A DNA stretch of 32,000 nt from NCBI GenBank assembly GCA_003144275.1, contig NJBF01000003.1:102699-134698 (forward strand), written 5' to 3'. The notes under the pieces are model-generated. The model saw only the letters and a list, made by a program, of their open reading frames with translations, made no database searches and was not told the DNA's origin. Of this stretch, positions 8,801 through 10,415 are shown one piece after another. Every line of letters begins with the position of its first letter. Within the stretch, counting starts at the first letter, position 1. Position numbers and translations under genes: made by a program. The stretch comes from Candidatus Heimdallarchaeota archaeon B3_Heim (GTDB taxonomy: Archaea; Asgardarchaeota; Heimdallarchaeia; Hodarchaeales; Hodarchaeaceae).

Positions 8801-9343
8801 TTATCCTTTTTTCTTCTGCTGTGGAGAGGGAACCAGAATAAGGTCATATTCACGTGAACCTATTCCTTGAGAATAAGCAGCAGCTAATTGTGTTTCTGCA
8901 ATAATGGGTCGAGATACAGGATCAACAAATCGGCTATATAAACCCAATTTTTGATTTTCAGCTTCCAATGCTCGTTCATTCGGTTCAATTCGTCCACTTG
9001 GAGAATTCATTCCAGTTTCCGCAGGTGACATGGGTAGTCCCCGAGCTTTAGTGACAAGATCCACACTTGCTTGATCTATAGCAATTGGATCTTCAGAATA
9101 CAAGATGCCCTGGTCTGGAACGAGAAGATGTCCACCTGCAGACATACAATCACAATGGCTTGTGATATCAATTGCGATGTTGAAATATCTTAATCTCTCC
9201 TTTCCAGTCCCTTTTACTACTCCTCCAGCATTATCCATCATTCTTTCTACTTGTTCCACACTGGGAACCCGGCGTCTTAATGCAAAAACTCGTTCTTTTT
9301 CCATATCCTTTCCGTGATGACATTTATCAAAACACATGATCAT
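8801..9343 (-). pseudogene. C-terminal part of a DUF362-like Fe-S protein (5'-truncated)
   Basis: NIAIDITSHCDC, VPDQGILYSEDPIAIDQASVDLV and a GIGSREYDLI ending match the C-terminal half of DUF362 ferredoxin-like proteins. Only CFDKC remains of the ferredoxin motif, an in-frame stop lies 12 codons upstream, and the N-terminal half is absent. Confidence 0.6.
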
Positions 9344-9482
9344 TTTTGTCCGACAAAGCGAGATTACTCGTATTCGCTAACCTCTCCCTCTCTCTTACAT
9401 TCATAAAAAGCCTCCCTCCATAACCTCTTCCAAGCGAGGTGATGAAAAGAAAAATTCCTAACTTCTTGGGTCTTATTCACTT

Positions 9483-9690
9483 GTAACTACGTGAGACGAG
9501 TTACCCGTCAAAGGCAAGAGAAGAATGACCCTTTAGACGTGAGAGGTATTAGCGCTGGGGATATCAGCAGTAAGGATGCTTCAAGTAGTCCCAATGAATA
9601 GTAACCCTTTTAGTGGTGCTAATCTGCTGGATAGCGGATGTGTGACTCATCCTGTCCAGAACTCTTTTCAAGAGTTGTCTGACAAATCTA
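9483..9690 (+). ncRNA. Candidate structured non-coding RNA of unknown class
   Basis: Consecutive hand-verified helices: 9483-88/9499-504, 9506-14/9530-39, 9548-56/9615-23, 9627-40/9648-59, 9660-66/9670-76. Several G-U pairs work only on the + strand. The block looks GC-richer than the other intergenic spacers and carries no long ORF. Confidence 0.4.
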
Positions 9691-9705
9691 GTCATGAACC
9701 AAAGC

Positions 9706-9713
9706 TATAAAAA
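9706..9713 (+). promoter_or_regulatory. Putative TATA box for the 9747 gene
   Basis: TATAAAAA preceded by an A-rich BRE-like stretch, about 35-40 nt upstream of the ATG. Confidence 0.4.
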
Positions 9714-9746
9714 TAGTAATGTAAGAGAATTACATAATCATTTTTC

Positions 9747-10415
9747 ATGGTGAAATTACTAATGAGATTCGGTCCAACTTCTTTTTCTAGTGATACAGAA
9801 CTTACTAAACCCTTAACCTCTTTCGGCCCACTAGTTGCTAAAGGTAATCTTTATGCTTCGGAGATAAAAACTAATGGTCCTTGTTCGATAGGAGACAATT
9901 TAGAGATAGATTTATCGCTAAAGGTGAATGGTCCTCTAGTTGTAAAAGGATCCTTAACCTGTCACAAAGAGGCGGCTGCCAAAGTTAATGGCCCTGTAAA
10001 CATCAATAATGGCATCATTGGTGGAAAAATCAAAATAAACGGCCCATTGAAAGCACGGTATGTAGAAGTCAATAATTTCAAGGTGAATGGACCATTAACC
10101 GTTGAGGAAGACATTATAGCTGAAGAAAATATTATTATTGGAGTAGGACGGTCAAGCAAAGGACGTGAAGGTCAATCTGTGTCAGTAGGAGGAGTTATTG
10201 CAGCGCCAGTAATTCGGATCACCAATTATTCTTCTATGTTTTCAGCTGCTAAAATCATTAAAAAAGTAATAGGATTAAAGGATAACTTTGAAAGAGTATT
10301 AATTCTTAAAGATCTAAAATTTAAAGCTGAAAAATTAGAGTTAGAGGGAATCGAATTAGAAAATTGTGACACAACTGAAGTTGGAGAAATTATTCAGATT
10401 CATTCTAAAAAATAA
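9747..10415 (+). CDS. Beta-helix/solenoid repeat protein, bactofilin (polymer-forming cytoskeletal)-like
   Basis: Seven [F/N]GP-anchored repeats (Gly at aa 9, 27, 44, 62, 82, 99, 115; spacing 16-20 aa) with alternating V/I/L beta-strand pattern; no signal peptide or TM segment. Confidence 0.65.
   Translation: MVKLLMRFGPTSFSSDTELTKPLTSFGPLVAKGNLYASEIKTNGPCSIGDNLEIDLSLKVNGPLVVKGSLTCHKEAAAKVNGPVNINNGIIGGKIKINGPLKARYVEVNNFKVNGPLTVEEDIIAEENIIIGVGRSSKGREGQSVSVGGVIAAPVIRITNYSSMFSAAKIIKKVIGLKDNFERVLILKDLKFKAEKLELEGIELENCDTTEVGEIIQIHSKK

Follow-up and report, generated by a model that had tools for sequence, protein, structure and literature searches.

Background

The omegaRNA of ISDra2 consists of a 116-nt scaffold followed by a 16-nt guide and overlaps the disordered C-terminus of TnpB, and the nucleotides situated just 5' of its guide form a pseudoknot (PMC10097598). 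RNAs of this kind, referred to as sotRNAs or omegaRNAs, are also on record for archaeal IS1341-type elements (PMC4615843, PMC12558985). The archaeal descriptions include a hairpin, a pseudoknot to the 3' end and a right-end hairpin, and a “pseudoknot between hairpin loop and TEM” has been described for omegaRNAs (PMC12558985). In bacteria, protein-less derivatives of IS200/IS605 elements, the PATEs, carry omegaRNAs that act in trans (Meers et al., bioRxiv 10.1101/2023.03.14.532601). In Asgard archaea and elsewhere, TnpB has been found in elements equipped with non-canonical transposases (aCas1, IS630 DDE), Asgard-linked groups of TnpB exist, and symmetrical ends have been reported for TnpB elements riding on DDE transposons (PMC10691335).

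The locus analyzed here belongs to a stretch of 32,000 nt of the genome of Candidatus Heimdallarchaeota archaeon B3_Heim (contig NJBF01000003.1), hereafter the window. A preliminary description made from the sequence alone had pointed out in this window an unannotated, highly structured RNA candidate of ~200 nt (9483-9690, plus strand) and had proposed three options for it: a new or divergent non-coding RNA, a riboswitch-like element, or the orphan guide-RNA scaffold of a mobile element. Our analysis supports the last of them. The best reading is that the candidate is of a known kind, an omegaRNA scaffold located on a miniature element derived from a TnpB element, and not a new RNA class. With a probability of about 0.8, we consider the segment 9335-9696 a MITE/PATE-like derivative of a tnpB-only insertion sequence (IS), carrying an orphan omegaRNA that would be used in trans by TnpB. 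This explanation assigns an apparent orphan structured RNA to the guide system of a mobile element, and its annotation as a new ncRNA or a riboswitch is not needed. For one TnpB clade belonging to the archaeal group closest to eukaryotes, the analysis also provides a compact scaffold, its covariance model (R1) and a predicted TAM. Moreover, the retention of a mid-gene module and the nature of the mobilising enzyme raise testable questions on the spread of tnpB-only elements.

Results and discussion

General characteristics of the element and its copies

The candidate region lies within a gap of 403 bp, flanked on the left by an ORF of the minus strand (8801-9343) and on the right by one of the plus strand (9747-10415), in a window whose G + C content is 34-42%. 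The plus-strand ORF encodes 222 aa with regularly spaced N-G-P repeats and has no Pfam match. A search of the genome with the intergenic stretch returned 46 matches, and about 25 copies devoid of TnpB are present in this genome. In the window, positions 9335-9696 of the plus strand constitute one sharply delimited 362-bp unit of this repeat family, into which the structured region 9483-9690 falls entirely (Table 1). Seventeen full copies of 359-367 bp were recovered by genome BLAST and nhmmer, in addition to diverged, partial and contig-end copies. They are distributed among three subfamilies showing about 98%, 75-80% and 67-70% identity to the window copy, the 98% level being shared by five copies.

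CATG is present at both termini, and the outermost ~22 nt on each side form imperfect inverted repeats around a TTGTC-N-GACAA palindrome (~17 of 22 positions match between the left end and the reverse-complemented right end). The flanks of the copies are unrelated, the insertions being located at about 25 unrelated places, including the inside of genes and start codons. The unit is short, multi-copy, non-coding and bounded by ends common to a longer tnpB element, as are MITEs and PATEs.

Table 1. Coordinates in the window of the element, its predicted functional parts and its immediate surroundings
Feature	Position	Strand	Evidence or remark
DUF362 gene, 3' part, interrupted at an internal CATG by the element	8801..9338	-	Pfam profile positions 147-200 of 200
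Whole non-autonomous element, MITE/PATE-like	9335..9696	+	Copies by BLAST/nhmmer, empty sites in G013
Left end, imperfect TIR with TTGTC-N-GACAA	9335..9356	+	Common to left end of 1.4-kb tnpB elements
TATA-like box TTCATAAAAAG	9400..9410	+	Conserved block in copy alignment; putative tnpB promoter
Relic of tnpB ribosome-binding site and start codon, GAGGTGATG	9436..9444	+	Kept in all copies
Module 1, stem-enclosed, with the GTAACT/AGTTAC hairpin	9468..9531	+	Homologous to tnpB codons ~200-222, RuvC-I region
Module 2, putative omegaRNA scaffold, 115 nt	9582..9696	+	Homologous to tnpB 3' end and right end
Covarying hairpin	9596..9624 (9596-9603 with 9617-9624)	+	6/6 pairs change on both sides, 42 distinct sequences
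GGAUG/CAUCC hairpin	9636..9652	+	98-99% kept, nearly invariant
Right-end hairpin	9653..9684	+	Apex 9660-9664 with 9672-9676: compensatory changes in 4/5 pairs
Right-end TIR, terminating in TCATG	9675..9696	+	Copy alignments
Predicted 16-nt guide from flanking DNA	9697..9712	+	Conservation among copies stops at 9696

The TATA-like box reads CTTAAAAGG in the other subfamilies. The production of a small protein by the element was considered and rejected, as no ORF is conserved and the start provided by GAGGTGATG opens only 4-14 codons. A stop-free frame extends across the element in seven copies of the second subfamily (e.g. L008, L082, L007, L085), in which the old tnpB frame is open over ~121 codons and has no start codon at its beginning; the subfamily of the window has stops. 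The duplicated ACGTGAGA (9489, 9537) highlighted in the preliminary description is indeed present twice, but the repeat is specific to the window's subfamily.

Relationship with a tnpB-only insertion sequence

Several genomic matches cover only the right ~115 nt of the element, and ORFs of 417-437 aa are located directly upstream of them. The corresponding proteins carry the PF07282 (Cas12f1-like TNB) and PF01385 (OrfB_IS605) domains, show homology to the structures of ISDra2 TnpB and Cas12f, and display motifs resembling RuvC signatures (GIDLG; NADYNAA). TnpB relatives with 67-86% identity are encoded by MAGs labelled Heimdallarchaeota and Hodarchaeota. The parent unit measures 1411-1424 bp, shares its ends with the short element and encodes TnpB as sole product, as in IS1341-type IS. 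About six intact tnpB genes (at least six autonomous copies) are present in the B3_Heim genome. Many contigs end within tnpB or its right end (C75, C102, C96, C8:3-92, C82:3-92, C41:6-126, C86:6-126); the copy number of the tnpB element is therefore under-counted and repeats limit the assembly.

A sensitive comparison revealed that the short and long elements are collinear in four pieces: the left end, the promoter and start region, 50-75 nt from tnpB codons ~200-222, and the last ~35 codons together with the right end. The two internal blocks lie in the same former tnpB reading frame. Judged from this collinearity, the short element is an internally deleted, protein-less derivative of the 1.4-kb tnpB-only IS. 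What had been seen as a stand-alone ncRNA or riboswitch-like element is one of ~25 copies of a repeat that corresponds, in its 3' part, to the 3' end of tnpB and the right end.

The constraint acting on the retained blocks was evaluated with a codon alignment of 11 tnpB genes (five from the B3_Heim genome and six from MAGs of relatives). Synonymous-site identity, which is ~0.5 along tnpB, amounts to 0.77-0.87 over codons 200-222 and, in the terminal part of the gene (codon ~385 to the stop), to 0.77-0.91. These frozen zones are exactly the two blocks retained by the MITE. Both blocks hardly vary, even among copies whose overall identity is only 67-80% and whose spacers diverge freely. The freezing of synonymous sites, combined with this near-invariance, points to a selection on nucleic acid rather than protein. 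Within module 2, the invariant core codes for the C-terminal TnpB peptide LPDSGCVTHPVQN.

Structure of the 3' block and comparison with omegaRNAs

Module 2 has a homologue on the sense strand at the 3' end of an intact tnpB at 18 loci, and the window copy has the same orientation. From an alignment of 23 short elements and 18 tnpB 3' ends we derived the covariance model R1, and 46 matches to it, consisting of MITEs and tnpB 3' ends from the B3_Heim genome and other MAGs (42 distinct sequences), were realigned. In this alignment, which is fitted to the model, 96.5% of the cells are paired versus 29-42% with slid partners, and cells with double changes number 95 versus 11-30. The covariation score is 0.315 compared to 0.03-0.08, and 0 of 500 shuffles was as good, the relatedness of the copies inflating such shuffle tests. 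In total, ten pairs of the two covarying hairpins changed on both sides in the model-fitted alignment.

The loop GUGACU (9642-9647) of the GGAUG/CAUCC hairpin can pair with AGUCAU (9690-9695), forming a candidate pseudoknot beside the predicted guide. This pairing is compatible with all copies, 98-99% kept and nearly invariant, with no compensatory changes; the single changes observed in it and in the GGAUG/CAUCC stem are mostly wobble-compatible. More generally, the GUC/GAU, GUGACU/AGUCAU and GUC/GAC helices are kept in 99% of cells and barely variable, and this invariance of the helices beside the guide means that covariation cannot confirm them. The assignment to the plus strand made in the preliminary description is upheld by the fold of the block 9578-9696 relative to shuffles (z = -2.07 on the plus strand, -0.63 on the minus strand) and by the excess of G-U over A-C (43 vs 4) at pairs with a Watson-Crick consensus.

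The complementary segments initially listed are all present in the sequence. Taken as a single sequence, the 208-nt region is no more stable than expected by chance: its minimum free energy of -56.9 kcal/mol corresponds to z = -1.29, and 25 of 200 shuffles gave an energy at least equivalent (z = -0.34 for the minus strand). The conservation of the individual helices was tested on 25 genomic copies (alignment A1), and three of those initially drawn are conserved wholly or in part. The hairpin GTAACT/AGTTAC with inner CGT/ACG (9483-9504) is 99% paired and invariant, and covariation, with UA replaced by CG in six copies, is seen in the stems on either side of it (CTT/AAG, TTC/GAA). The AACTCTT/AAGAGTT helix displays compensatory changes and is the only one of the three that covaries within itself. 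In the composite helix CTGGATA-gc-GGATG/CATCC-TGTCCAG, the GGATG/CATCC part holds (98% paired, invariant). In the CTGGA/TCCAG part, position 9628 forms a C-A mismatch in 23 of the 25 copies. The T at 9628 is private to the window copy, in which it completes both CTGGA/TCCAG and the pseudoknot that had been proposed between TATCAGCAG and CTGCTGGATA. This pseudoknot is paired in 55% and unconserved among copies.

The CGTCAAAGG/CCTTTAGACG helix (9506-14/9530-39) is paired in 43-54% and GGATGCT/AGTAGTCC (9574-80/9584-91) in 28%, both being unconserved. The long-range helix ATTAGCGCT/GGTGCTAAT (9548-56/9615-23), 72% paired, conflicts with the strongly covarying local hairpin 9596-9603/9617-9624, with which it shares its 3' strand; the tnpB coding sequence that provides its 5' strand is unconstrained. 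The alternative pairings on which mutually exclusive, switch-like helices had been postulated are not conserved among copies. Of the initial model, neither the long-range helix nor the pseudoknot nor the switch is conserved. The suggested echoes of SAM-I, group I and HEARO RNAs have no Rfam match, even at E up to 10; nothing in the window reaches the gathering score, and the only match of the region 9200-9900 at E up to 10 is a chance one to a snoRNA at 15 bits.

Compared to the omegaRNAs of ISDra2 and archaeal IS1341-type elements, module 2 is alike in its location on the tnpB sense strand, overlapping the last ~35 codons and the right end, and in its length (~115 nt, versus 116 nt in ISDra2). 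It also shares with them a hairpin and a right-end hairpin, it could form a similar pseudoknot linking the 3' end to a loop, and its conservation stops where a flank-derived guide would begin. Conversely, it has neither sequence similarity with characterised omegaRNAs nor a matching Rfam family, and the scaffold of the window has no tnpB gene upstream.

A conserved block from the middle of tnpB

Module 1 is 79-89% identical to the middle of tnpB. Its enclosing stem has a pairing level of 88% in the MITEs and 77% in the tnpB genes, versus 32-59% in slid controls, and shows UA to CG exchanges; the fold of the module has a z of -2.07 relative to shuffles. Two inner folds compete, GTAACT/AGTTAC and GACG/CGTC, and cannot be told apart because both are invariant. 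The tnpB version of the core carries a GTC-N-GAC motif which resembles the palindromes of the ends. No consistent long-range pairing was detected between modules 1 and 2, the sole recurrent feature being the complementarity of the GTC-N-GAC cores.

We found no description of a comparable mid-gene element in the literature on TnpB systems consulted for comparison. The conservation of module 1 allows the tentative suggestion, which we regard as possible rather than probable, that it is a functional nucleic-acid element of a kind so far undescribed for TnpB systems. One possibility is that the omegaRNA precursor has in module 1 a second domain, serving its processing, its stability or the loading of TnpB. 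Module 1 could also regulate tnpB in cis, or be recognised as an internal site by a transposase moving the inverted-repeat, CATG-bounded tnpB elements of Asgard archaea.

Insertion sites and mobility

The minus-strand ORF adjacent to the element matches only the C-terminal quarter of Pfam DUF362. In the closest relative (genome G013), an intact DUF362 gene of 422 aa runs through the CATG equivalent to 9335-9338; the 5' part of this gene is absent from the B3_Heim assembly. The true left neighbour of the window's right flank is found at the end of contig C31 (78230-78356), which stops 127 nt into an identical left end. The intact G013 gene and this contig end indicate that the left and right flanks in the window belong to two different insertion sites, and the window contig reflects either a rearrangement mediated by the repeat or a mis-join between repeat copies that are 98-100% identical. 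In the four public runs, available as contigs, the DNA contigs break at the ends of the element.

Insertion polymorphism, with filled and empty sites, is observed for the element family. The empty site for the window's right flank is located in G013:C88 and that for the copy on contig C76, uninterrupted, in G013:C104, the G013 flanks being 93-97% identical to those of B3_Heim at these two resolved sites. In both pairs, the empty site has a single CATT or TATG, and the filled site CATG on both sides, a pattern fitting either a short 3-4-bp duplication or an IS605-like TAM combined with an end motif encoded by the element. Despite the high identity of the flanks, clusters of mismatches occur beside insertion points, for example at 4 of 6-8 positions (L005 1495-1875 vs L109; window 9697-9710 vs L103 1503-1520); they may be repair scars or fast-evolving sites.

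According to a hand-curated motif scan, the base preceding the left CATG is A in 19, C in 11 and G in 4 of the 34 cases and T in none, and the right end reads TCATG. The absence of T may act as a self/non-self discriminator for the nuclease or reflect a target preference. One copy (L084, C86:22165-22527, minus strand) coincides exactly with the start codon of an ORF of 595 aa, and the terminal ATG of its CATG continues in frame into this gene. A “748-aa open frame” at this copy does not represent an in-frame insert, the insertion being exactly at the start codon of the gene. Targeting of CATG would often strike start codons.

Searches of the 94%-complete genome detected neither Y1 TnpA nor an IS607-type recombinase nor Cas1, and no partner transposase recognising the ends was identified in it. 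One serine recombinase/resolvase was considered as mobiliser and rejected, being Hin/Tn3-like with no element ends nearby. The search for larger or cargo-bearing elements with the same ends gave only units of 33, 146, ~360 and ~1420 bp, and a 2.6-kb interval between element ends was discarded as it holds a host gene for an M48-like membrane protein. Considering the TIRs of ~22 bp, the CATG on both sides and these negative searches, the canonical IS605 model may not apply to this element. The symmetrical ends recall the TnpB elements riding on DDE transposons, but neither Cas1 nor an end-linked transposase was detected in the B3_Heim genome.

The element resembles PATEs by its short size, its multiple copies, its lack of ORF, its ends common with tnpB elements and its presumed use of TnpB in trans. 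It differs from them by inverted-repeat ends of ~22 bp with CATG on both sides, where PATEs have two different subterminal hairpins, by a genomic context without Y1 TnpA, by the retention of an extra conserved mid-tnpB module and by its host, an Asgard archaeon instead of a bacterium.

Proposed function and alternative explanations

In the proposed mechanism, the retained tnpB promoter, with its TATA-like box at 9400-9410, would drive a plus-strand transcript through both modules and across 9696 into the flank. This transcript would be trimmed to a scaffold of ~115 nt and a flank-derived guide of ~16 nt, and TnpB produced by the at least six intact autonomous copies would load this MITE scaffold in trans. 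The resulting complex would cut the empty allele where the TAM is followed by a match to the guide, favouring retention of the element through homing. By analogy with known omegaRNAs, the guide would correspond to 9697-9712, which overlaps the TATA box of the next gene (9747-10415). If the TAM were a plain CATG, the junction of the element itself would be a target, its right end being also CATG. The absence of T before the left CATG, together with the TCATG of the right end, leads to the prediction of (A/C)CATG as TAM, which would spare the element's own right junction. One contig of 151 nt from an RNA-labelled library covers 9493-9643, and proves neither transcription nor strand.

The conserved structures could alternatively be DNA-level transposition signals only, the RNA of the MITE being functionless. 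Several traits are in line with this possibility: the ends carry inverted repeats with the TTGTC-N-GACAA palindrome, a related GTC-N-GAC core exists in module 1 of the tnpB genes, the right-end hairpin is placed where IS200/IS605 elements have a DNA hairpin, G-T wobbles are tolerated in single-stranded DNA too, and the public runs gave contigs only and no demonstrated transcript. We nevertheless consider it unlikely, as the constraint covers the 115 nt adjoining the right end, with a covarying hairpin at a distance of 73-100 nt from the tip, an extent that far exceeds usual end signals and equals that of an omegaRNA scaffold. Moreover, the same constraint is found within the tnpB coding sequence, on the sense strand, and no comparable structure is visible by eye at the left end.

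An even less probable explanation, which we hold to be very unlikely, is that of a decaying tnpB pseudogene remnant without a function of its own, the similarity of the copies being due to recent copying. The near-invariance of the blocks in copies 67-80% identical, with free spacers and a length maintained at 359-367 bp, is difficult to reconcile with it, as are the compensatory changes preserving the hairpins and the stops present in the old frame in the window subfamily, even though both internal blocks derive from tnpB in the same former reading frame and five copies are 98% identical. The remaining proposal, a stand-alone ncRNA or riboswitch-like switch regulating the downstream gene, was suggested by the intergenic position just upstream of a TATA box and by the several stems that can be drawn. 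It is scarcely credible given that the same sequence, with unrelated flanks, recurs at ~25 places that have nothing in common, some within genes and others at start codons, that G013 is without the element at two of these sites, that the alternative pairings are unconserved and that no Rfam riboswitch matches. A miniature element carrying an omegaRNA scaffold for TnpB is consequently the explanation that we retain.

Distribution of the scaffold and shorter relatives

R1 identifies 36-37 scaffolds in the B3_Heim genome, about 25 of them without tnpB. Matches to the model are found in 8 of the 22 genomes of the genus (7 of the 21 others), with 1 to 41 copies each and a patchy distribution. The search was extended to two other genera of the order and gave no match there. 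This Asgard genome would therefore harbour more orphan omegaRNA scaffolds (~25) than intact tnpB genes (~6), providing a natural case of many guides for few nucleases. Two ultra-short relatives of the element were also detected: a 33-bp unit (C8:64499-64531), in which both ends share a single palindrome between two CATGs, and a 146-bp unit (C57:96043-96188) that has lost module 1 and most of module 2.
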